Shown here piece after piece: positions 1,039 to 52,625 of a DNA stretch of 64,000 nt. The notes under the pieces were generated by a model. The model had not been told where the DNA came from. It saw only the letters and a list, made by a program, of their open reading frames with translations, and searched no databases. Source of the DNA: Fimbriimonadales bacterium (lineage in GTDB: Bacteria > Armatimonadota > Fimbriimonadia > Fimbriimonadales > ATM1); contig JBGTLG010000041.1 in NCBI GenBank assembly GCA_041744215.1, forward strand, positions 1-64,000, read 5' to 3'. Each line of letters opens with the position of its first letter. Positions within the stretch are counted from its first letter, which is position 1. The translations under genes and the position numbers were made by a program.

Positions 1039-2160
1039 TCATCTTCCTTGCCAATAGCGAATAAGTTCTTCTTCGTTTTCGATGACGTCGCGGCTGGTTC
1101 GCTTGACGCGCAGATTGGGGGCGGGCTGCAATGCTCGGAAACTGGGATCGCCCTGCAATTCGTCGAGCCATAGAAGGGCGGCGACGCGAACTTGCTGATT
1201 CGGATCGCTCAGAAGCGAGATGAAGAAATCCTTGCGCTCTTCTGAGGCGTGATTCATCGTCGCTCGGATCGCTGAGGCTTTCGCGGCAGCGGTTCTTGCA
1301 TTGCGAATAATGTTCATCAGTTTCATCAATTCGCCGCTTCGAGTCGGTATCTCGATCCAAACGGTTTCTTGTGTATCGTGTGTCGCGTCGAATTCGTCGA
1401 AGAATTCCCAGAACTTTCGGTAGCCAGGTTCGCCTGTTACGATGGCCGAGGTCTTGTGGACTCGGGCCTTTCTTTCTGCGTTGCCGCCTGCTGCCGCGAA
1501 TAATCGAGGCTCGAATGTACTGGAATAGAACGAAGCGTACTCGGGAATGACGTGAGGCAGGGTCGGGTGGCGAGGGATCGATCTTTCGAGCCACTGCAAG
1601 TAGATGGGTTTCGGATCGCGTTCGTACGCTTGAATAAGAACTCCCGCATATCGCTCGTGCGGCGTTGCGCCTATGTTTGTGTACTCGCCAGCGGGAACGG
1701 TTGGCATTTCACGCAGGTTTGCAATCTTCCACTGATCGGCCGATTCCGATTGATAGAACACTCTTGATCCTCCTGTTCCAAACAGGCGCTCTGGTCCATA
1801 GGGGCGAACCATGGCGAGAATGCAGTAGTTTTCGGATGGCCAGAAGCTGGTGCTGGATCCTAGTGAAGTGCTTGAGTAAACAAGCGCTGTGATCATGCCA
1901 ATCGGAGCCTCGCCGTAGATCACAAGTTTCGGAGTGAAGCGATAACGGAAGGCAAAGCCCAGCTCCTCCGTTGGCGAAACGTTGCCTTCGGAGCTTACTT
2001 CGAAAAGATTAGGTCTGTAACTTCCCGCTCTGTCAACAAACTCCGCCAACAGAATCGTGTGAGCGTTCGCGAGGATTCTGTGTTCATACACAGAAGGGTA
2101 CATGTATTCGGGCAATTGCGGATTGGACGCGAATGCGAGAGTTGCAACGATTGGAAACAT
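1039..2160 (-). CDS. Hypothetical secreted protein with C-terminal HEAT-like motif (paralog 1)
   Basis: 373 aa ORF; GGAGG SD upstream; N-terminal MFPIVATLAFA; motif LLSDPNQQVRVAALLWL; paralog at 2382-3473. Confidence 0.8.
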   Translation of the reverse strand: MFPIVATLAFASNPQLPEYMYPSVYEHRILANAHTILLAEFVDRAGSYRPNLFEVSSEGNVSPTEELGFAFRYRFTPKLVIYGEAPIGMITALVYSSTSLGSSTSFWPSENYCILAMVRPYGPERLFGTGGSRVFYQSESADQWKIANLREMPTVPAGEYTNIGATPHERYAGVLIQAYERDPKPIYLQWLERSIPRHPTLPHVIPEYASFYSSTFEPRLFAAAGGNAERKARVHKTSAIVTGEPGYRKFWEFFDEFDATHDTQETVWIEIPTRSGELMKLMNIIRNARTAAAKASAIRATMNHASEERKDFFISLLSDPNQQVRVAALLWLDELQGDPSFRALQPAPNLRVKRTSRDVIENEEELIRYWQGR

Positions 2161-2303
2161 GATGTACCTCCAGAAGGCGCATGTGTTATGCTGCCATTTT
2201 CCCTGAATATGAGATCATGCGAGACGAGAAAGATCGATGGGGTTGCACCAGGCGCTGTCGCGCTCGTACCAGCGTGGTACTCGTGAACCAGCGAGAGCGG
2301 GTT

Positions 2304-2380
2304 GCCGGATTCTTAGGACTGCTTTTCATCCTGAGCTGACTCCAGACACGCGCGTGCATGAGCTGTTTTTGCAGATGTGA
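2304..2380 (+). pseudogene. pdxT: Duplicated 3' fragment of pdxT
   Basis: Encodes ...TAFHPELTPDTRVHELFLQM*, as at 961-1037, with only a few substitutions. Confidence 0.85.
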
Positions 2381-2381
2381 T

Positions 2382-3473
2382 TCATCTTCCTTGCCAGTAG
2401 CGAATCAGTTCTTCCTCGTTTTCGATGACGTCGCGGCTGGTTCGCTTGACGCGCAGATTGGGGGCGGGCTGCAATTCGTCGAGCCATAGAAGGGCGGCGA
2501 CGCGAACTTGCTGATTCGGATCGCTCAGAAGCGAGATGAAGAAATCCTTGCGCTCCTCCGATGCTTGACGGATAAGCGCGCGAGTCGCGGCTGCGCGCGC
2601 AGCGGCCGTACGCGCGTTTCGGGCTAGGTCCATTAGCTTGGAAGCGTCTGCGTTTCTTGCGGGAATTGCGAGCCAAACCGTTGCATCAGGCTCAGCAGTG
2701 GCATCGAAGTGATGCAAGAACTCCCAAAAACGCCGATATCCAGGATCACCGGTAATGACCGCCGACGTCTTCAGCACCTGTGACTTGCGCTCCGGATCTT
2801 CACCGGCGACTTGCAGCAGCCGTGGCTCAAGTGTTGAGAGGTAGAAACTAGCGTATTCGGGCAAAATCTCGGCGCGCGCCGGATGACGCTGCGCCGAGAA
2901 CTCAAGACCTACCACGAAAACAGCTTTGGGGTCGTGCTCGTATGCTTGTACGAGCACTGCGGAAACTCGTTCATGGGGCGTTGCACCGACTGCTGCATAG
3001 TCGCCAAGTGGAAGAGTTGGTACCTGCGAAGGTGTTCCAAACCTCCACTGATCGCTTGATTCACATCGAAAGAAGATGCCTCCGCCTCCGGTGCCGAGAA
3101 GGCGGTTGGCACCAAATGGACGATATAGCGCCATGAGGTAGAGCATATCTTTGCTGAACAAGTCGGGCCCGTATGGAGTTGACCGACCCTCAAACTTCAC
3201 GCCGGTTATCTGCTGGCCGACTTCGCCTTTTACAATCAGCTTCGGTCTAAAAATGTGCCGGTCGACGGTTCCTGTGCGGATCGTCTCGATGATGTTGCCA
3301 TTGTCGTCTGCCGTCACAACGTCTGCATCATACTGACCTGCGTACCCGATATACTCCACGACGACAATCGCGTCGGCGGTTTCGATTAGTCGGTTGGTCT
3401 CGTAGTACGGATAGACAGCGCTCGGAAACTGCGCAGGGGCGCCGAATACGAGAGTTGCAATGATTGGAAACAT
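2382..3473 (-). CDS. Hypothetical secreted protein with C-terminal HEAT-like motif (paralog 2)
   Basis: 363 aa ORF with the same SD and leader as 1039-2160 and a near-identical C-terminus. Confidence 0.8.
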   Translation of the reverse strand: MFPIIATLVFGAPAQFPSAVYPYYETNRLIETADAIVVVEYIGYAGQYDADVVTADDNGNIIETIRTGTVDRHIFRPKLIVKGEVGQQITGVKFEGRSTPYGPDLFSKDMLYLMALYRPFGANRLLGTGGGGIFFRCESSDQWRFGTPSQVPTLPLGDYAAVGATPHERVSAVLVQAYEHDPKAVFVVGLEFSAQRHPARAEILPEYASFYLSTLEPRLLQVAGEDPERKSQVLKTSAVITGDPGYRRFWEFLHHFDATAEPDATVWLAIPARNADASKLMDLARNARTAAARAAATRALIRQASEERKDFFISLLSDPNQQVRVAALLWLDELQPAPNLRVKRTSRDVIENEEELIRYWQGR

Positions 3474-3861
3474 GATGTACCTCCAGAAGGCGCATGTGTT
3501 ATGCTGCCATCTTCCCTGAATATGAGATCATACGAGACAAGGAAGATGGCTGCCGCATAGGAATTCGTGGCCTCCTTGTTTCTGGACCTTTCCGCGTTCC
3601 AATGTTTGCCGTCCGCGTTATCAACATAACACCTTAGCGCTCCTCTTGGCTTCGAAACGATGCTGCGAATCACATTCCACTCCGGCCCGACCGCGATCAG
3701 CGATTCCGGCATACATGTGACGCCTACAGCCATGTATGCGTTACTCGTGCCATGGCACCCATGCCTGCAGGATCCTTCCACGGTCTTATTGTTACGACAC
3801 ACCGCCTTAAGCAGCGCGTTCAATCCTCCGAATGCCGATTGTTTACCACAACCGCCGACGC

Positions 3862-40846: not shown

Positions 40847-42217
40847 TTACTCGTCGAGCAATCCTCTCGCTTCCTCCAACTGCCTTTTCATCGCCTCCGT
40901 CCCCGGTCCGCCGACGACATCCCTCGACCTGATGCTCCCCGCCGCGTCCACGACTTGCAAAACCGAGTCTGGAATCCCAAGCCCGATCTCCGAAAAACGC
41001 GCTTCGTTCAGATCCATCAAACTCCAACCACGCTTTTCGCATTCGCGCACCAGTTTCCCCGCCAATTCATGCGCTGTGCGAAACGGCATTCCCGACGCGG
41101 CGAGCGCATCGGCGACCGCGGTTGCGGTCGAGAAACTTTGTCCCGCCGTTGCTTTCATTCGATCCGTGTCGAATGTCGCCGTCTCGATCATGCCCGCGCA
41201 CAATGCAAGCGAATCGAGGCATAAGCTCACGGCGTCGAAGAGCGGCGGTTTGTCTTCTTGCTGGTCGCGGTTGTATCCCAACGGAAGCGCTTTCATCATC
41301 GTTTGAAATGCGATCCAATGTCCATAGACCCGCCCGGTTCTTCCACGTATCAGCTCAGCGAAGTCGGGGTTGCGCTTTTGCGGCATGATGCTGCTCCCTG
41401 TCGAGAACGCGTCATCGAGTCGCATAAAGCCGTACTCCGCGCTGCTCCACATCGTGATCTCTTGTGACAGGCGCGAGAGGTGTTGCATGATCATCGCGCA
41501 CGCGTGCAGCGCATCGCCGATGAAGTCGCGGTCACTCGTGGCGTCGAGTGCGTTCTGTGATGGGCGCGCGAATCCTAGATCATTCGCAGTCATCTCTCTG
41601 TCGACAGGAAACGGAGTTCCAGCGAGAGCAGCCGAACCGAGGGGACATTCCTCGCACCCTTTCTCCACAAAGTCCAAACGAAGAACATCTCGCTGCAGCA
41701 TCCAGAAGTGAGCGAGCAGGTGGAAGCCGAATGTGATCGGCTGCGCGCGCTGCATGTGCGTGTATCCAGGCATCGGATCGTGCTGGTGTTTTTCGGCAAG
41801 ATGCAAGACGACAGTTTGTAGCCTCTTGATGTCGCTGCGAAGCTCTTCGCACTTTCTGCGCAGCCAAAGCCGAGACACTGTCGCGATTTGATCATTGCGG
41901 CTTCTTCCCGTGTGCAGTTTCCCCGCGACATCACCGATTCTCTCAAAGAGAATGGACTCGATTGCGCCGTGGATGTCCTCTGCGTCGGGCGGCAGTTCGA
42001 GCGAACCAATCTCCATCTCTGCGCGAATCTTCTCCAGTTCGGAAACGAGCGCATCTGCTTCCGGTACGATCCCCGTCGCGCCGAGCATCCTCGCGTGGGC
42101 GATGGAAACGTCGAGCTCCTCTCGCCAAAGAACTGCGTCGGTCTCGATAGATTGACCGAATCTCCATGCCAGCTTATCCGGCGATTTGTCGAACGCTCCG
42201 CCCCAAGTTTTCTTCAT
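40847..42217 (-). CDS. argH: Argininosuccinate lyase
   Basis: LHTGRSRNDQ, GYTHMQRAQP, TGSSIMPQKRNPD. Confidence 0.97.
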   Translation of the reverse strand: MKKTWGGAFDKSPDKLAWRFGQSIETDAVLWREELDVSIAHARMLGATGIVPEADALVSELEKIRAEMEIGSLELPPDAEDIHGAIESILFERIGDVAGKLHTGRSRNDQIATVSRLWLRRKCEELRSDIKRLQTVVLHLAEKHQHDPMPGYTHMQRAQPITFGFHLLAHFWMLQRDVLRLDFVEKGCEECPLGSAALAGTPFPVDREMTANDLGFARPSQNALDATSDRDFIGDALHACAMIMQHLSRLSQEITMWSSAEYGFMRLDDAFSTGSSIMPQKRNPDFAELIRGRTGRVYGHWIAFQTMMKALPLGYNRDQQEDKPPLFDAVSLCLDSLALCAGMIETATFDTDRMKATAGQSFSTATAVADALAASGMPFRTAHELAGKLVRECEKRGWSLMDLNEARFSEIGLGIPDSVLQVVDAAGSIRSRDVVGGPGTEAMKRQLEEARGLLDE

Positions 42218-42307
42218 ACGTCGTAACGCAGCCTGCACTCAGAATCTACCTGCTAATCGCCCTTCGCAACCCGGAAACGTGCCGACGATCTCGATTTTTT
42301 CAGGACA

Positions 42308-43495
42308 TCAACTCCCCTTTAACTTCGAATACAGCAGCGACGACATTCCGTGCGTTTGGACCATGCCAGTCATCGCATTTTGATCAAAGGAAGAATCGTC
42401 GAAACTCGCGTCCGCCTCTGAATACAAAGCCCACGGACTCTGCCTTCCGATCACCGTCATAGAGCCCTTGTACAGTTTCACGCGGACGATGCCTTCGACT
42501 CGCGATTGGATTTGCTGAGCGAACGCCATCAGATCTTCAAACAGAGGATCGCCCCAAAGCCCCTTGTAAACCAAATCGGCCCATTCGACATCTACCAGTT
42601 GCTTGAAGCGCCTTTCGTGCGGCGCGCAAACCAGCGATTCCAAAGCCTTGTGCGCCCCAATCAGCAGCACTGCTCCGGGACACTCGTAGTTCTCGCGTAC
42701 CTTCAGGCCGATCATTCGGTCTTCCATCATATCAATGCGACCCACTCCATTCGTACCGGCGATCTTGTTGCATTGCGAAATCAAATCCAAAGCATTCAGC
42801 TTTTTCCCATCGAGTGAAATCGGCTTGCCGCATTGAAAACCTATCTCGACGATTGTGGGTTGATCAGGGGCGCTTTCTGGCGCGAGAGTCCATTGGAAAA
42901 TCTCCTCTGGAGGTTCATGATTCGGGTCTTCGAGCTTTCCGCCCTCGATGCTCCGCCCCCACAGGTTTTCGTCGATCGACCAGATTTTGTTTTTCGATTG
43001 CGCGATCGGAGCGCCAACCTTTTCCGCGTACTCGATCTCTTCGCTTCGCGTCCAGTTTTTTTCACGGACAATCGCACGAATCTGGATGCCGGGCGCAAAC
43101 TGCCTTAGCCCGTATTCGATTCGGAACTGGTCGTTGCCTTTGCCGGTGCATCCATGAACGATGGCGTCGAAAGGCCCGTTTTCCTTCGCTATTCGCGCGG
43201 CCTCGAGTGCGATGAGCGGCCTCGCGATTGCCGTTGAGAGCGGATACCCATAGTAGTCGGCGTTGAATGCGATCGCTGGCATGCAGTAGTCGCTTGCGAA
43301 CGCCGCTTTCGCGTCCACAACGGTGTGCTTCGTTCCCATGAACTCTGCACGCTCAGTGGCCTGATCAATGTCCGCCGACGGCTGACCGACATCCACCGTC
43401 ACCGTATGGACTTCGTCGTAGCCCTCTTCTTTCAGAACCGGAACGCAGACGGTGGTATCGAGTCCACCGCTATAAACAACCAGAGCCTTCTTCAT
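42308..43495 (-). CDS. argG: Argininosuccinate synthase
   Basis: YSGGLDT, HGCTGKGNDQFR, SIDENLWGRS. Confidence 0.97.
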   Translation of the reverse strand: MKKALVVYSGGLDTTVCVPVLKEEGYDEVHTVTVDVGQPSADIDQATERAEFMGTKHTVVDAKAAFASDYCMPAIAFNADYYGYPLSTAIARPLIALEAARIAKENGPFDAIVHGCTGKGNDQFRIEYGLRQFAPGIQIRAIVREKNWTRSEEIEYAEKVGAPIAQSKNKIWSIDENLWGRSIEGGKLEDPNHEPPEEIFQWTLAPESAPDQPTIVEIGFQCGKPISLDGKKLNALDLISQCNKIAGTNGVGRIDMMEDRMIGLKVRENYECPGAVLLIGAHKALESLVCAPHERRFKQLVDVEWADLVYKGLWGDPLFEDLMAFAQQIQSRVEGIVRVKLYKGSMTVIGRQSPWALYSEADASFDDSSFDQNAMTGMVQTHGMSSLLYSKLKGS

Positions 43496-44469
43496 TCAAA
43501 AACGCCATCCATGATCAGCTTCATCAGTGATTTTTGCGCATGGAGGCGGTTCTCTGCTTGATCGAATACAACGGATTGCTGGCCGTCGATCACTCCGTCG
43601 GTCACTTCCAGGCCGCGCCGTGCGGGGAGACAGTGGAGGAAGATCGCTTTACTATTCGCCAGAGACATCAACTTTTCATCGACCTGGTACTTTGCGAAGC
43701 GCGCTTTGCGCTCTTCCTCTTCGCTTTCTTGCCCCATGCTCACCCACACGTCGGTGTACACGGCGTCTGCACCGGTGACCGCAACCGTTGGGTCGTAGAC
43801 TTGCGAAACGTTAGCGTACGAGTAGCAGTGATCTGCCGCTTCGTACCCGGGCGGCGTGCAGATCGCAACTTCGTGTCCGAGCATCGCTGCCGTCACAGCG
43901 AAACTGTTTGCGACATTGTTCCCGTCACCGATGTAAACGAGTTTCTTGGGAGCAGTCCCCAGATGTTCTTCAACGGTCAGCAGATCAGCGAGCGCTTGGC
44001 ATGGATGATCAAGGTTGGTGAGCGCATTGATCACTGGGACGGTGGAATGCTTCGCGAGTTCAACCAGCGTCTCGTGGGAATTGAGGCGAGCGACGATCAT
44101 GGCGGACCACCTGCTCAGATTTTGCGCGACATCGGAGATGCTCTCGCGATTCCCCATGTCGATGTCGTTCTTGGTGAGATAGATCGCATGTCCACCGAGC
44201 TCCACCATCGCTGTTTCGAATGTGAAACGGGTGCGAAGCGACTGCTTTTCGAAAATCATCGCCAGGACGCGATTCTCTTGCCGGTGAACTTGCTTTGGCG
44301 CGAAATTGCGGTCGTACTTCAAGACTTTTGCCAGGTCAAGTACGAGACGCACTTGCGAAGGCGACAGGTCAGCGCTGGTTAAGACATGTTTCGGCGCGAT
44401 TTTTGGCAGCTCAACGCTGGCAACCGCAAAGAGCGGCTGTTGCTGCGAATACGATTGGAGTTGGTACAT
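43492..44469 (-). CDS. argF: Ornithine carbamoyltransferase
   Basis: FEKQSLRT, HPCQ, GDGNNV, DVWVSMG, HCLP, AENRLH; AAGGA before the ATG at 44469. Confidence 0.94.
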   Translation of the reverse strand: MYQLQSYSQQQPLFAVASVELPKIAPKHVLTSADLSPSQVRLVLDLAKVLKYDRNFAPKQVHRQENRVLAMIFEKQSLRTRFTFETAMVELGGHAIYLTKNDIDMGNRESISDVAQNLSRWSAMIVARLNSHETLVELAKHSTVPVINALTNLDHPCQALADLLTVEEHLGTAPKKLVYIGDGNNVANSFAVTAAMLGHEVAICTPPGYEAADHCYSYANVSQVYDPTVAVTGADAVYTDVWVSMGQESEEEERKARFAKYQVDEKLMSLANSKAIFLHCLPARRGLEVTDGVIDGQQSVVFDQAENRLHAQKSLMKLIMDGVFE

Positions 44470-44587
44470 TCTCTGAGTCCTTGCTTTGGGGGAAGCGGCG
44501 CGCGCCAGGCGCAAGACGGCGATTTGTCTTTTGCGGGGTTTCGCGGGATCTCGCGTGGCAGCGGCGACCTTCCTTAGGGCGAAACCC

Positions 44588-44686
44588 CTAAGCTCGGACT
44601 CGTCGGCCTCGGGTGGCCGGACGCGACGGCGCGCCGCGGAATCTTCCGCCGTTAGCGCTAACTAGTCCAAGTCCGGTGTTTGCCAC
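44588..44686 (-). CDS. Putative Arg-rich leader peptide of the argFGH operon
   Basis: 32 codons GTG..TAG, MANTGLGLVSANGGRFRGAPSRPATRGRRVRA, with 7 Arg codons (4 CGA among the last 7); lies between the promoter and argF. Confidence 0.65.
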   Translation of the reverse strand: MANTGLGLVSANGGRFRGAPSRPATRGRRVRA

Positions 44687-44700
44687 GAGAATGAAGTGTG

Positions 44701-44730
44701 ATTATACCCGATTGTCGGTCGAACTGTCGA
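44701..44730 (-). promoter_or_regulatory. Sigma70-type promoter of the arg leader/operon
   Basis: Minus strand TCGACA-N18-TATAAT. Confidence 0.7.
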
Positions 44731-44853
44731 TAGCCTTAGCCATTGGAACGGATGGGGCTGCACTCTTACTGTTCGGCCTTGCGATCCATAGACCTCGCTG
44801 CCGACGCGACCGCACTCGGCGGGGTGCGCGAGGAAGCCCTGGTCTCGGGTCGG

Positions 44854-45159
44854 CTAATGCAGAGCGTCGCACAGGCGTGCGACCTCTTCGATCGACAGCT
44901 CTCCTGAGTCCACGAAAGGTTGGAGCTTTGCGGCGACGTCTGGAAAGGTCGGGGACGAAAATTCGCAAAGCGGGAGGTTCGGCGAATCAAGTTCGACGAG
45001 GGTGACCCGGTAGCCTGACGTTTTGTCCGAAACTTCGCGAACACCGACACCTCTCTCGATTAAGTCGTGGACCGATGTAAACACTCCGGTCACATGGCTC
45101 TTGCCAGCCTCGTCGAACTGTTCTGTAACCCAATAGATTCTTCGAAATCTCATGCTCAT
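44854..45159 (-). CDS. Hypothetical protein
   Basis: 101 aa ORF; ATGA overlap with the peptidase stop codon. Confidence 0.7.
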   Translation of the reverse strand: MSMRFRRIYWVTEQFDEAGKSHVTGVFTSVHDLIERGVGVREVSDKTSGYRVTLVELDSPNLPLCEFSSPTFPDVAAKLQPFVDSGELSIEEVARLCDALH

Positions 45160-47234
45160 TTTCGCTTCCTGACTGTCTTCGTCGATGCCTTTGCAGTGGA
45201 GAGATGCTCCTTCCACCACCTCAGAATCTCATTGAGGCGGTGAATTCGGAGATCCGGGGGGCCACTTCGGCTCATGCCGTGGCTCGTTGAGGAAGGATAT
45301 CTTACGAACCTGGTTTGAACGCCCAGCACCTTGAGCGCCGTGAACACTTGTTCGCCCTGTTCCACATTGCACCTTAGATCGCCCTCGCTGTGAATGACCA
45401 GCGTCGGCGTCTTGCAGTTCCCGATGTACCTGATCGGGCTCGAGTTCCACAAATGTTCAGGCTCGCTCCAAGCGTTGCCCTTCCAATATCGATCTGGCAT
45501 AAATGGGAAGTCGCTATTTAGCGCCATGCTCAGCATATTGCTGACGCATCTGTCAGTTATTGCGCCCGAAAACTCGTTGGTGTGGCCTATCACCCAGTTC
45601 GTCATGAATCCGCCGTAGCTCCCGCCCATCACACCCATGCGCTTTACGTCAACGTATGGGCGTGATTTCATGAATGCTGTGACGCCTTGGATGTCGATCC
45701 AATCGACATTCCCCCAGTCGCCCTTGATCGCATTGCAAAACGCTTCTCCATAACCCTTGCTTCCGCGCGGGTTGCTAAAGAACACCGCGTAGCCAGCTGA
45801 AGCGAGCACCTGGAATTCGTGGAAGTATGGAACGCCGTATTGCGCGTGTGGACCGCCATGAACTTCCAGCACCGCGGGGAGTTTGCCGGTTTTGTGTTTT
45901 GGAGGAAGCATCACCCAAACCTGCACCTTAGTTCCATCGCTCGACGTGATCCAGTGCATTTGCGGTTTGGAAAGCTCCAACTTCGAAAGGGTGTCTTTGT
46001 TTAGTGATGTAAGTTGCTTCACATCCGCTGAAGTCAATGAAATCTTTGCGACACCGATCTCTGATGGCAATAGTGCGTGTCCAGTGGTAACCGCCGCCAG
46101 CTTCCCATCGTCCGAGAGATTGCCGAAGGTGATTTCGGTCGCGCCGCTCGTGAGGAACTTGAGTTTCCCGCCTGTTATGTCGAGCGCTGCAAGATGCACT
46201 TCCCCGTGCCAGCCGATTTGCAATATCAGCCGTTTTGAGTCGGGAGACCAACAATAGTTCGATCCATAGCCCGCATCGCGAGTGTCGCTCAGCGTCCCGA
46301 CAGAAACGCAGTAATCCTCGCTCCCAGTCAAATCTCGCGCGCCGCCTCTTTTCGCGTCAATGACATACATCCTGTCATTGAGCGCGCTCCACAAGTCCTC
46401 CCGTCCTTCTACGCCGCTATAGGCGATCCACTTCCCGTCCGGCGACCACCTTGGATTGCTTTTCCCTCCATCCGGCTGGTTGGCGATCTCCGTGTGTTTT
46501 CCAGTCTTGGCATCAACCCGATACAGCCGCGACCTCCATGGTTTGAACAATGGGTTTCGATCAAGATTTGCGGCGACCACGAGTTCTTTCGAATCTGGAG
46601 ACCAGTCGAATTCAATCCATCCGAGCGGATCCTTGTCGAAGAGCCTCCTGTGCTCACCGCTCTGTGTGTCAACGACGTAAAGATGGTGTCTCTGTGCATT
46701 GAAGTACCCATCGCCGTCGAGCCTGTACCAGTAATCGTCGATCACCCGCGCTGGTGTGCTGAGCCCTTTTTCCTCGCGATCTTTCTTCGCTTTCTCCGTC
46801 CATTCCGGATCCGCTTCGCGAAAGGTGAAGGCTATCATCTTGCCATCCGGCGACCACTTGAACCCTCCAATCGCTCCTTCCGGCAACGACGTTAGCTTCG
46901 CTGCTTCTCCTCCGGACGCCTCAATGCAATAGATTTGCGGGTTTGGTTTTTCACGACCGCTGATCAGAGCAATTCTGCGACCATCATGCGACCATCTTCC
47001 GTGGCCATCTTTGCCTCCTTGCGTGAACGGACGAGGCTCGCCACCGGATACGTCCGCGATCCAGAGATTGGAAACGTAGTCGTTCTTTTCTCCGACGTGC
47101 TTTCTGGTGAAGAGGACTTTGCTGCCGTCGGGAGAGATTTGCGGATCAGAGACGAGCTTGTAAAGGAGTAAGTCTTCGGGGAGGACAGGGCGCTTGCCAG
47201 TTGAACGCTTGGGCGCCGGGGAGGGCTTTTTCAT
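45156..47234 (-). CDS. S9 family peptidase (acylaminoacyl/dipeptidyl peptidase) with beta-propeller
   Basis: WSPDG repeats, HGGPH, GGSYGG, HSEGDLRC, SHG. Confidence 0.94.
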   Translation of the reverse strand: MKKPSPAPKRSTGKRPVLPEDLLLYKLVSDPQISPDGSKVLFTRKHVGEKNDYVSNLWIADVSGGEPRPFTQGGKDGHGRWSHDGRRIALISGREKPNPQIYCIEASGGEAAKLTSLPEGAIGGFKWSPDGKMIAFTFREADPEWTEKAKKDREEKGLSTPARVIDDYWYRLDGDGYFNAQRHHLYVVDTQSGEHRRLFDKDPLGWIEFDWSPDSKELVVAANLDRNPLFKPWRSRLYRVDAKTGKHTEIANQPDGGKSNPRWSPDGKWIAYSGVEGREDLWSALNDRMYVIDAKRGGARDLTGSEDYCVSVGTLSDTRDAGYGSNYCWSPDSKRLILQIGWHGEVHLAALDITGGKLKFLTSGATEITFGNLSDDGKLAAVTTGHALLPSEIGVAKISLTSADVKQLTSLNKDTLSKLELSKPQMHWITSSDGTKVQVWVMLPPKHKTGKLPAVLEVHGGPHAQYGVPYFHEFQVLASAGYAVFFSNPRGSKGYGEAFCNAIKGDWGNVDWIDIQGVTAFMKSRPYVDVKRMGVMGGSYGGFMTNWVIGHTNEFSGAITDRCVSNMLSMALNSDFPFMPDRYWKGNAWSEPEHLWNSSPIRYIGNCKTPTLVIHSEGDLRCNVEQGEQVFTALKVLGVQTRFVRYPSSTSHGMSRSGPPDLRIHRLNEILRWWKEHLSTAKASTKTVRKRK

Positions 47235-48446: not shown

Positions 48447-49115
48447 CTACGAAAGCGATTCGTCTGAGCGCCCGTCGGGTTTCCCGGTGGGCGCTCTGTG
48501 ATTTAACAGCAACGCTTGAGAGGCCGTTCGGGCAGGGACGAAGTCTGGATTGTCACGGACGTACGATTCCAGGCAGGATCCTATCGCCAAGGCCGCCGAA
48601 ACCGCAACGTTTAAGGAAGTGACCATCCCGTACATGGGTATCGCGACGGTCTCATCGCATCTGGCTACGAGCTCCGGCTCTAAACCCTCTAATTCGCGGC
48701 CTAAAACGAGGGCAGCGGGATGCCCCCATTCCATGCCTGGCAGGGGTGTCGCACCTGGTACGAGCGTCAATCCGTAAATGCGGTAGCCGTCCGACCTGGC
48801 GTTATCGATGGCATCCTCCGCAGGTAGCCATTCGACAGGAACCCACTCAATGGCTGCAAAGCAGCCTGAAAAGTCGCGCTCCTTTCGCGGCAATGGGGTG
48901 AAGGAAACGGACTCAACCCGATACGCATCGGCAATCCGAAGAATGTTTCCATGATTTATTCCCTTGTCCAAACCTGAGCAGATGATCCTGATGGGGGCAC
49001 GCGGCAACTCTGTGAATCGAGCCCGTAATCCGGGGTCATCCGCCTCGCGGGAAGCCACCTTGACCACTTCCTCCAGCCTCTTGATCGCCGCCTTCTGGCG
49101 CTTGCTATCGCCCAT
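48447..49115 (-). CDS. TrmH/SpoU family RNA methyltransferase
   Basis: NHGNILR, VLGRELEGL, IPMYGMVTSLNVAVS. Confidence 0.9.
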   Translation of the reverse strand: MGDSKRQKAAIKRLEEVVKVASREADDPGLRARFTELPRAPIRIICSGLDKGINHGNILRIADAYRVESVSFTPLPRKERDFSGCFAAIEWVPVEWLPAEDAIDNARSDGYRIYGLTLVPGATPLPGMEWGHPAALVLGRELEGLEPELVARCDETVAIPMYGMVTSLNVAVSAALAIGSCLESYVRDNPDFVPARTASQALLLNHRAPTGKPDGRSDESLS

Positions 49116-50771: not shown

Positions 50772-50865
50772 GGGGCCGGCTGGGGGCTGGTGTCTCCTCT
50801 GGTCTTCAAAACCAGTGCGGCGTCGCAAGGCGCTGGGTGGGTTCGATTCCCACACGGTCCCGCCA
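50772..50865 (+). tRNA. selC: tRNA-Sec (anticodon UCA)
   Basis: 94 nt; 8-position acceptor stem; 6-bp D stem with TGGT loop; anticodon arm CTGGT-CTTCAAA-ACCAG; long variable arm; GTGGG-TTCGATT-CCCAC T arm; G discriminator and CCA; TGGTAGTCT -10 upstream. Confidence 0.95.
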
Positions 50866-50976
50866 TGTTCTTTTGGGTGAGTGTGCGAAGGAGCTTCTCT
50901 CGGAAGAAGGTCCTTGTGGCACACAGGCGCGTATCGGCACGAACCAGGAATAATTACTGGGATTTGCCACGAGGAC

Positions 50977-51003
50977 TAAGGAAAGCCAAGAGTTGACCGA
51001 GAA
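50977..51003 (+). promoter_or_regulatory. Sigma28 (FliA)-like promoter
   Basis: TAAG-N15-ACCGAGAA versus consensus TAAA-N15-GCCGATAA; upstream of flgM. Confidence 0.55.
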
Positions 51004-51028
51004 TCAGATCAGAGGCAATAGGCCTCTT

Positions 51029-51099
51029 GACAGAAAAGGGCAATCCCCCGTGCGGGGAGCGCAAAGCCACGGGCCGTGAGGCAAGCCGGGTTGCCTGTC
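51029..51099 (+). ncRNA. Cyclic di-GMP-I (GEMM) riboswitch, compact variant
   Basis: P1 GACAG/CTGTC; AAGGGCAA-stem-GCGCAAAGCC-stem-AGCCGGGTTGCC core matches GEMM motifs. Confidence 0.85.
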
Positions 51100-51143
51100 T
51101 CGAAGTCAGGCTCGTCCAGGAGCCAAAGGATGGAAAGACAGAC

Positions 51144-51422
51144 ATGAAAGTATCGATGGAACAGGTTCGCAAGGTCGTCGAGCAGTCGAAGCTACAGCCT
51201 AGCGACCTGAAGACCGAGACCCTTTTCGACAAGGACCTGACGGCGTCGGCAGACGCAAAGCTGATCCGGCAGGTAGTCGATGAGGTTATGCAGATGCCTG
51301 AGGTCCGCGCCGAATTGGTAGCGGAGCTCAAAGCCAAAATCGAGCTGGGCGAATACAGCCCCAGTTCTGAAGACATCGTCGAAGCGATGGTTCGGCGAGC
51401 GATCGCCGACCGAATCCGCTAA
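51144..51422 (+). CDS. flgM: Anti-sigma28 factor FlgM
   Basis: 92 aa; C-terminal PEVRAELVAELKAKIELGEY...EDIVEAM FlgM signature. Confidence 0.85.
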   Translation: MKVSMEQVRKVVEQSKLQPSDLKTETLFDKDLTASADAKLIRQVVDEVMQMPEVRAELVAELKAKIELGEYSPSSEDIVEAMVRRAIADRIR

Positions 51423-51515
51423 GCCTACTACCGGACAAGCGCGAATTTTCGAGGGCAACAGCCAGCTGGCTGTTGCCCTCGATTCCTTTGGTTTGATTCT
51501 CGGTAGACTTGACCT

Positions 51516-52625
51516 ATGAGAAAACTAATCGCGTTCCTGTTGGTGGCGGCGATTTCGTGCTGCTCCTTCGCAGCAGATTTGGGTGTCGGCGACAAAGCTC
51601 CTCCGTTGAAAATTGCCGAGTGGGTCAAAGGTGAGCCTGTCAACACCCTCGAGAAGGGGCGCGTATACGTTGTCGAGTTTTGGGCGTCCTGGTGTGGTCC
51701 TTGCGTCGAAGGGATCCCACATTTGACAGAACTCGCGAAAAAGTACGCTGAGAGCGTTACGATCGTTGGCGTCAACATCTGGGAAGACCCTGAGGCGACA
51801 GACACTTCTTACTTTTCGACCGTCAAGTCGTTTGTCTCGAGGATGGGTGAGAAAATGGACTACGTCATCGGCATCGATGGGCCGAATGGCGATATGGCAA
51901 AAACTTGGATGCAGGCAGCGGGGCAAAATGGCATCCCAGCCGCCTTCGTCGTCAATGGCGATGGGTTAATCGTTTGGATTGGGCATCCAATGAATCTTGA
52001 TGGTGTGTTGGAAAAAGTTGTTGCCGGGTCGTGGGATTTGGAGACTGCGAAACAGCACGCGAAAAGCGAGCAAGAGGCTAACGAACTTCTCGGCAAGCTG
52101 TATCAGGAGATGCAGGATGTTGTCGAAGATGAAGTCAAGTCCCTCGAGTTTGCCGACAAGCTTGAAAAATTGATTGAGGAAAAGCCCAGCTTGTTAAGAC
52201 ACCTTGCTGGCTTGAAGTTTGGGAGCTTGGTGGCGAAGCATCCTGAAAAGGCCATGGAAGCCGCTCGCGCGTTCTTTAAGGGCGAACTGCGCGATGACGT
52301 TGACTTCCTCATGACGGTGTCAATGGGAATTCTTGAGCGCGAAGATCCAAAGATGGACTACGTTCTTGCCCTTGAGATGGCTCGCAAATTCGTTGACTCG
52401 GTTGGCGTAGACAGTCCGTTTTCGCTCGATGTTTTGGCTATGGCTCATTATCGAAATGGAAACTATGTTGAAGCGATTTTGATTGGGGAGAAGTCTGTCG
52501 CGCTGATTGATGCTGATATTCAAGCTGCGGTCGATTCTGGAAAGGAAGTTCCAAGAGGTTTTATACAGGTTCGCCAGTTTTTGTCTGATCGCGTGGAGAT
52601 GTATAAGAAGCGGGGCAAGGGCTAG
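51516..52625 (+). CDS. TlpA-like thiol-disulfide oxidoreductase with helical/TPR C-terminus
   Basis: Signal peptide, VGDKAPPL, EFWASWCGPC, GIPAAFVV, WIGHPM. Confidence 0.9.
   Translation: MRKLIAFLLVAAISCCSFAADLGVGDKAPPLKIAEWVKGEPVNTLEKGRVYVVEFWASWCGPCVEGIPHLTELAKKYAESVTIVGVNIWEDPEATDTSYFSTVKSFVSRMGEKMDYVIGIDGPNGDMAKTWMQAAGQNGIPAAFVVNGDGLIVWIGHPMNLDGVLEKVVAGSWDLETAKQHAKSEQEANELLGKLYQEMQDVVEDEVKSLEFADKLEKLIEEKPSLLRHLAGLKFGSLVAKHPEKAMEAARAFFKGELRDDVDFLMTVSMGILEREDPKMDYVLALEMARKFVDSVGVDSPFSLDVLAMAHYRNGNYVEAILIGEKSVALIDADIQAAVDSGKEVPRGFIQVRQFLSDRVEMYKKRGKG

Follow-up and report, generated by a model that had tools for sequence, protein, structure and literature searches.

A leader that can hide the argF ribosome-binding site in a Fimbriimonadales bacterium, and its possible control by an arginine-rich upstream open reading frame

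In the textbook view, bacterial arginine synthesis is controlled by the ArgR repressor, and we know of no textbook account in which this amino-acid pathway is subject to leader-peptide attenuation. The locus studied here raises the question of whether an arginine operon may be controlled by translation of its own leader. It is the region upstream of argF-argG-argH in a 64,000-nt stretch of DNA (positions 1 to 64,000 of contig JBGTLG010000041.1, assembly GCA_041744215.1) from a Fimbriimonadales bacterium of the phylum Armatimonadota; the whole stretch was analysed and is called the window below, and all features are on its minus strand unless marked (+). The original prediction placed a ribosome-mediated arginine attenuator at 44470-44730, in which a ribosome stalled on CGA codons for want of charged tRNA-Arg would turn the operon on. 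In this study, we found that the argF leader is very likely regulatory and built around a helix that occludes the argF ribosome-binding site (RBS). That this helix belongs to a ribosome-mediated arginine sensor acting on argF translation, i.e., to translational attenuation and not to a terminator-based device, is a tentative reading to which we assign a probability of roughly 0.4.

The helix was found in a duplex test in which the argF region 44491-44464 could choose its partner within the 200 nt upstream. The argF start codon in this region (ATG 44469) is backed by 325-aa relatives, which are 85-87% identical and share the conserved N-terminus MYQLQSYS. The best partner of the argF region was 44602-44584, with a duplex of -25.3 kcal/mol compared with -15.0 +/- 2.4 kcal/mol in dinucleotide shuffles, an energy reached by 2 of 1000 shuffles and by 3 of 1000 when the other arm was shuffled. 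The two strands of the helix, which is the inverted repeat I1, are the anti-RBS strand CGAGUCCGAGCUUAGGGGU (44584-44602) and the argF ribosome-binding region CCCCAAAGCAAGGACUCA (44474-44491), which contains a Shine-Dalgarno (SD)-like AAGGA at 44482-44478. The GAGUCC/GGACUC contact that had been proposed between the CGA run and the argF RBS is part of this longer 17-nt helix with 14 pairs. When the starts of 44 genes were compared with the same geometry, argF ranked first (z -4.61), followed by argG (z -2.14), and all remaining starts lay between -2.07 and +1.65. A downstream RBS sequestered in a stable helix, as in erm/cat translational attenuation, is therefore what this calculation finds before argF; the helix is the strongest result beyond chance, and the strand that would occlude argF looks purpose-built for it.

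The anti-RBS strand coincides with the end of a short upstream open reading frame (uORF). As predicted, a 32-codon frame that starts with GTG and ends with TAG (44590-44588) is present at 44686-44588; it encodes the peptide VANTGLGLVSANGGRFRGAPSRPATRGRRVRA and is the sole ATG/GTG/TTG frame of at least 5 codons in the leader. The anti-RBS strand covers its codons 29-32 and the stop. In agreement with the original prediction, seven Arg codons (AGA, CGC, CGT and four CGA, at codons 15, 17, 22, 26, 28, 29, and 31) were counted; the prediction was slightly off in placing all of them in the second half, as codon 15 falls just short of the midpoint. Four CGA are among the last six sense codons, which together with the stop are on the sole strand that pairs significantly with the argF RBS. 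As known from leader attenuators, codons for the regulating amino acid are clustered near the end, at codons 26-31 (CGA GGC CGA CGA GTC CGA, 44594-44611), where four of six codons are CGA. Among 814 short open reading frames (ORFs; 15-60 codons, all six frames of the window), only one has at least four CGA in six codons, by a threshold that was set after the sequence had been seen.

Ribosome pausing on this cluster is, tentatively, the most complete explanation of how the helix would be controlled. With plentiful arginine, ribosomes would run through the uORF and leave, and those in its first part would keep unwound a competing 5' strand, CGGACUUG (44668-44675), which can pair with 44602-44595 in an 8-bp helix; the anti-RBS strand freed in this way would pair with the argF site, and argF translation would be low. 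With charged tRNA-Arg scarce, the leading ribosome would dwell on the CGA cluster, its footprint would cover the anti-RBS strand, and the argF site would be open and translated. With its start overlapping the argF stop, argG would follow argF, and argH might do so too.

The cost of opening the argF site (44486-44458) was computed for different ribosome positions, with an assumed footprint (P-site +12/-16 nt) forced to be unpaired. It was 9.7 kcal/mol with no ribosome and rose to 13.2, 11.3, and 10.7 kcal/mol with a ribosome at codon 5, 10, and 20, respectively, and to 12.5 kcal/mol with two ribosomes at codons 5 and 20. When the A site was occupied by any of the four CGA codons, the cost was 7.2-8.5 kcal/mol; it was 8.1 kcal/mol for a queue with ribosomes at codon 5 and CGA29, and 6.4 kcal/mol with the stop codon in the A site. 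A footprint on the CGA cluster lowers the opening cost by about 4-5 kcal/mol. Opening of the RBS by a ribosome at the stall site, the other mark of the erm/cat type, was obtained in silico only. The computed direction fits the earlier claim that stalling on CGA uncovers argF; the Arg richness as such is at background level.

The transcript that would carry the uORF would start from a promoter that stands out in the sequence. The -35-like hexamer TCGACA (44725-44730) and the -10 hexamer TATAAT (44701-44706), separated by 18 nt and proposed as the promoter in the original prediction, give 11 of 12 matches; two such sites exist in the whole window on both strands, the argF promoter being one of them. 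The TATAAT is also the sole TANNNT hexamer on the minus strand in 44860-44470, an intergenic stretch of 391 nt. The promoter is beyond chance and strong, and it gives argF a leader of about 225 nt. With GGG before it, the -10 hexamer resembles the G-TAGAAT found 6-9 nt before many start codons in this genome. Of 45 ORFs, 16 have a candidate start with a TANNNT hexamer, mostly G-TAGAAT, 5-10 nt ahead of it (a raw count, without shuffle control), and in 12 of these 16 the start behind the hexamer is the first start of the ORF; examples of gene starts behind a -10-like hexamer are 23672, 25175, 37832, and 49115 (-) and 51516 and 57510 (+). A Shine-Dalgarno word was found in only 9 of 35 genes. 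Because of these two counts, leaderless or SD-independent initiation seems to be common in this Armatimonadota genome, among whose many apparently leaderless genes the long leader of argF is an exception.

A number of observations weigh against arginine sensing by the uORF, and several of them concern its codons. The original prediction had stressed the Arg enrichment of the uORF, but this enrichment did not hold up against base composition: a content of 7 Arg in 32 codons is matched or exceeded by 118 of the 814 short ORFs, the off-frame Arg rate of 13.8% gives it a binomial p of 0.14, at least four Arg in six codons occur in 55 of the 814, and 4 and 7 Arg codons can be read in the other two frames of the uORF span. 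The anti-RBS strand, in which the letters are largely fixed by complementarity to the argF site, takes in two of the four CGA codons and the stop, and these codons and the stop could be a by-product of the anti-RBS helix. In addition, CGA is the second most used Arg codon in the 35 family-supported genes (20.7% of Arg codons); rare-codon stalling was accordingly rejected, because CGA is a common Arg codon here.

Judged from the sequence, translation of the uORF is the weakest link. Its start is weak, being a GTG without Shine-Dalgarno sequence 14 nt after the -10 hexamer and about 6-9 nt inside the likely transcript start, with a computed cost of 5-8 kcal/mol to open the start region. Apparent leaderless genes here start 6-9 nt after the -10, and the codon at this distance in the argF leader is ATT, the in-frame ATT 8 nt after the -10 that had been noticed before. 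In E. coli, the lack of a Shine-Dalgarno sequence before the uORF would count more heavily than it does in this genome, where SD-independent initiation seems to be normal. No relative of the uORF peptide was found among 1.84 billion representative predicted proteins; the evidence from this is weak, since gene prediction rarely includes ORFs of such size. A 130-aa antisense ORF over the promoter and uORF had no protein match, not even itself, and is for this reason not a predicted gene.

The structural calculations also hold points against it. Stalling gives no better opening of the argF site than a ribosome at the stop codon does, the argF site is still partly closed in every computed ribosome state, and the minimum-energy fold without a ribosome keeps the anti-RBS strand in the 5' helix and not on the argF site. 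The mutually exclusive pairings described for the leader are all present, although three of the four are no better than chance. In a scan of genome contigs with very general peptide patterns derived from a 35-sequence ArgF alignment, at least 80 argF loci were obtained with 43-51% identity (Acidobacteriota, Chloroflexota, archaea, Bacillota), no close relatives being listed; only one of the 80 listed, L069 (Capsulimonadaceae), is from the same phylum, and in most of the 80 argF directly follows another gene. Nothing similar to the leader was found elsewhere in the window or in the 80 loci listed. The uORF survey of the 20 listed loci with roughly at least 100 nt upstream gave no signal in either direction, as uORFs with at least four Arg in seven codons numbered 5 in sense and 2 in antisense direction, and Ser and Ala gave similar results. 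The N-terminally longer ArgF predictions of relatives gave no usable view of their leaders.

The main rival of arginine sensing by the uORF is a structured-RNA sensor, riboswitch-like or protein-binding, in which the open frame is incidental. The 5' strand CGGACUUG and its partner close an 83-nt domain of four hairpins (44676-44594), and binding of a ligand or protein to this domain would free or hold the anti-RBS strand. We regard this as unlikely, and it is kept as the main rival because the 83-nt domain also looks like a translational riboswitch. The layout is the usual one for such an element: the anti-RBS/RBS helix is real, and the 3' strand of the closing helix of the compact domain is the 5' half of the anti-RBS strand, so that the two helices compete. 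The domain has a z of -2.51, with 1 of 200 shuffles folding as well, a value that is inflated because the boundaries were picked after folding. Base composition, moreover, accounts for the Arg richness of the frame. Against this reading, 493 of 1000 shuffles do as well as the closing helix itself, i.e., the pairing of the CGA run with CGGACUUG, which does not exceed chance, the 5' half (44694-44584) and the middle (44583-44492) of the leader fold no better than shuffles (z -0.67 and -0.43, respectively), and no Rfam family, T-box included, was found at E up to 10 in 43000-46000. A structured RNA would also leave unexplained why no stop codon interrupts the frame between the transcript start and the anti-RBS strand and why the CGA run is in phase.

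The whole leader is more self-complementary than its shuffles (z -2.39; 3 of 200 fold as well) and contains 24 perfect 6-mer complements against 12.0 expected (13 of 1000 shuffles). Several of the pairings behind these figures had been described in the original prediction and were recovered. The stop-codon hairpin CUUAGGG-GUUUCG-CCCUAAG (7 bp, 44573-44592) shares 44592-44584 with the anti-RBS strand and 44588-44579 with a competing perfect 10-bp helix, in which the partner is GCGAAACCCC (44535-44544); a helix of at least 10 bp occurs in 49 of 1000 shuffles, and the local stop-hairpin region is not above chance (631 of 1000 as good). The perfect 9-bp long-range helix 44637-44629/44503-44495 is present as well. 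A 7-bp helix of the 5' end (44693-44687) with the argF AUG (44473-44467), which is part of the minimum-energy fold, was considered and set aside as not above chance (328 of 1000); it hinges on the position of the transcript start.

A second rival accepts the RBS-occluding leader and removes arginine from it. The helix would merely keep basal argF translation low, or respond to temperature, general translation status, or a small RNA, and any arginine control would come from elsewhere, e.g., from ArgR or from feedback inhibition of enzymes. The helix is, apart from the promoter, the only feature clearly beyond chance, and the opening costs of the different ribosome states differ by only a few kcal/mol, both of which an unspecific damper would account for. 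It would, however, make a coincidence of the position of the single uORF, whose last codons reach into the anti-RBS strand and include four that specify the end product of the operon, and we consider it improbable.

Repression at the DNA level, in which a transcription factor on the palindromes GTTAGCGCTAAC (44662-44651) and GGCGCGCC (44634-44627) would block transcription and the RNA features would be secondary, is less probable still. The perfect 12-bp palindrome GTTAGCGCTAAC lies inside the uORF, about 30-45 nt downstream of the likely transcript start, where it might be an operator or a small hairpin. It is single-copy in the window, and at up to 2 mismatches it is not above chance, since 79 of 100 shuffles hold at least one match. 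With the pattern TGAATWWWWATTCA, which has a 14-nt core, no ARG-box-like site was found within 3 mismatches near 44470-44860; the window as a whole has 3 matches where 9.3 are expected, and all of them are at 1631-3530. Family matches of the window ORFs revealed no regulator gene adjoining the operon, and neither argR, any other Arg-repressor family, nor any arg gene besides those of the operon was among the family matches of the 64-kb window. The signs of ArgR control in the textbook sense, a repressor gene and ARG boxes, were thus not seen at the operon. Finally, a GC-rich spacer that has a promoter but no regulatory function, with the ORF and pairings arising by chance, is equally improbable, for even though most single features are within chance, the anti-RBS helix is reached by only 2-3 of 1000 shuffles and lies far outside the other 43 gene starts, and a leader of this length is unusual among so many apparently leaderless genes.

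Classical terminator-based attenuation was rejected, as no terminator-like site exists in 44200-45300; the absence of a U-tailed terminator claimed in the original prediction was confirmed by a search for hairpin-plus-U sites in the same interval. The absent leader terminator says little about transcription termination, because such terminators are not enriched in the window as a whole (20 vs 19.8, 22 vs 18.9, and 25 vs 21.8 expected). Two hairpins elsewhere in the window, at 48466-48496 (+) and 51449-51482 (+), have 14 and 15 pairs that are perfect or near-perfect, lack a clear U-tract, and may be tail-less terminators. An unsupported possibility is that Rho loads on the C-rich stretch that follows the uORF; the C/G ratio is 1.4-1.75 in 44580-44480, and the stretch is predicted to be paired. 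Rho was not among the families found in the window, although no search aimed at rho was made.

Leader-based control by ribosome stalling is known from several systems, with which arginine sensing by the argF leader can be compared. Translational attenuation of ermC, cat, and cmlA works through a ribosome that stalls in the leader ORF and thereby exposes the Shine-Dalgarno sequence of the next gene. The argF leader resembles these systems in having a short leader ORF, a downstream RBS in a helix, a stall site whose occupation would remove the occluding strand, and no terminator. The trigger in erm/cat is an antibiotic acting with the nascent peptide, whereas in the argF leader it would be a shortage of charged tRNA-Arg, and the ribosome would cover the anti-RBS strand directly, without the four-segment relay of erm/cat. 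The leaders trpL, hisL, leuL, thrL, ilvL, and pheL are transcription attenuators with leader peptides. The argF leader shares with this class a cluster of end-product codons near the 3' end of the ORF and pairings that depend on ribosome position; it differs in that there is no hairpin-plus-U terminator before argF and no Rfam leader family, and the output would be on translation.

In fungi, the arginine attenuator peptide encoded by the arg-2/CPA1 uORF senses free arginine as a nascent peptide, stalls the ribosome at high arginine, and blocks scanning. It is likewise a uORF that makes an arginine-pathway gene arginine-responsive through ribosome stalling, but it is eukaryotic, has neither an Arg-codon cluster nor an RBS helix, and its logic is opposite to that of the argF leader. 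A nascent-peptide arrest of this type at high arginine was rejected for argF on this logic, because the argF site would then open when arginine is plentiful, and a biosynthetic operon needs the reverse.

Among experimentally studied systems, the closest case of Arg-codon sensing in a leader ORF is orf34 (speFL) of the Salmonella speF leader, in which pausing at Arg codons in low arginine alters the fold of the mRNA (Ben-Zvi et al. 2019, PMC6386406). The same study describes two consecutive Arg codons in a conserved peptide, translation of the leader ORF that unfolds an RBS-hiding structure, as proposed here, and interference with Rho (PMC6386406). Unlike the argF leader, orf34 belongs to Enterobacteria and controls ornithine decarboxylase instead of arginine synthesis, and its outputs, shown experimentally, include Rho termination and RNase G decay (PMC6386406). 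In genomic style, the closest relatives are the mycobacterial polycysteine leaderless short ORFs, which act as starvation sensors (Canestrari et al., bioRxiv 10.1101/834739). As presented there, they too are small ORFs at the 5' end of a polycistronic mRNA, in organisms with many leaderless mRNAs, and are rich in codons for the product of the operon; they differ in sensing Cys, where the argF uORF would sense Arg, and in starting with AUG or GUG exactly at the 5' end, while the GUG of the argF uORF is inside the transcript and an AUU is at the leaderless distance (10.1101/834739).

In a full-text literature search, whose coverage mostly excludes subscription journals, no Arg-codon leader ORF before a bacterial arg biosynthetic operon was found. 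If arginine sensing by the argF uORF is true, it would be the first case in which a leader peptide controls an arg biosynthetic operon, arginine would join the amino acids sensed through ribosome stalling, and the leader would represent a simple, direct-uncovering form of translational attenuation. Gene regulation in Armatimonadota would also come into view for the first time; molecular genetics is almost absent from this phylum, in which leaderless mRNAs seem to be common and U-tailed terminators do not stand out. Taking the near-leaderless Arg uORF (a) and an undescribed riboswitch or protein-binding class formed by the 83-nt domain (b) jointly, we consider the chances about even that the locus carries a sensor not described for bacterial arg operons. 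Under (b), the 83-nt domain could respond to a metabolite of the arginine pathway, with its closing helix holding the anti-RBS strand, possibly alongside the uORF.

The genes downstream of the leader are indeed argF-argG-argH, as family matches for all three indicate: argF (43492-44469) encodes an ornithine carbamoyltransferase (OTC) of 325 aa (NF001986, 398.8 bits), argG (42308-43495) an argininosuccinate synthase (NF010392, 537.9 bits), and argH (40847-42238) an argininosuccinate lyase (TIGR00838, 519.8 bits). The overlap of the argG ATG with the argF stop suggests translational coupling. The argG start, whose complementarity to the upstream 200 nt (inside argF) is the second most extreme in the duplex test (z -2.14), was matched by 6 of 200 shuffles. 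The ArgF of the window has only a 22-aa N-terminal extension; several Armatimonadota ornithine carbamoyltransferases outside the window are about 470-500 aa long and carry an N-terminal Clp_N domain (PF02861), and others are fused to an aminotransferase domain (PF00202).

On the other side, the gene-free stretch before argF comprises 387 nt (44856-44470) and is bordered by the gene of a conserved 101-aa protein (44857-45159), which directly follows a gene for a Dpp5-like peptidase. An identical 101-aa entry and 7 relatives with 55-74% identity were found for this protein; it matched no Pfam or NCBIfam family, and its protein atlas scores were only 0.80, which is at noise level. The G+C content of the window is 56%. 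A scan of the whole window at Rfam gathering level gave only two elements, both away from the leader. One is a selenocysteine tRNA gene at 50772-50865 (+), detected by ARAGORN (anticodon TCA) and by Rfam (RF01852, 78.4 bits). The other is a c-di-GMP-I riboswitch aptamer (RF01051) at 51029-51098 (+), with 37.3 bits against a gathering score of 35 and an E of 0.0011; it overlaps an unsupported 140-aa ORF on the opposite strand (50954-51376), and a redoxin/thioredoxin-like ORF (51516-52625 (+)) follows about 420 nt downstream.

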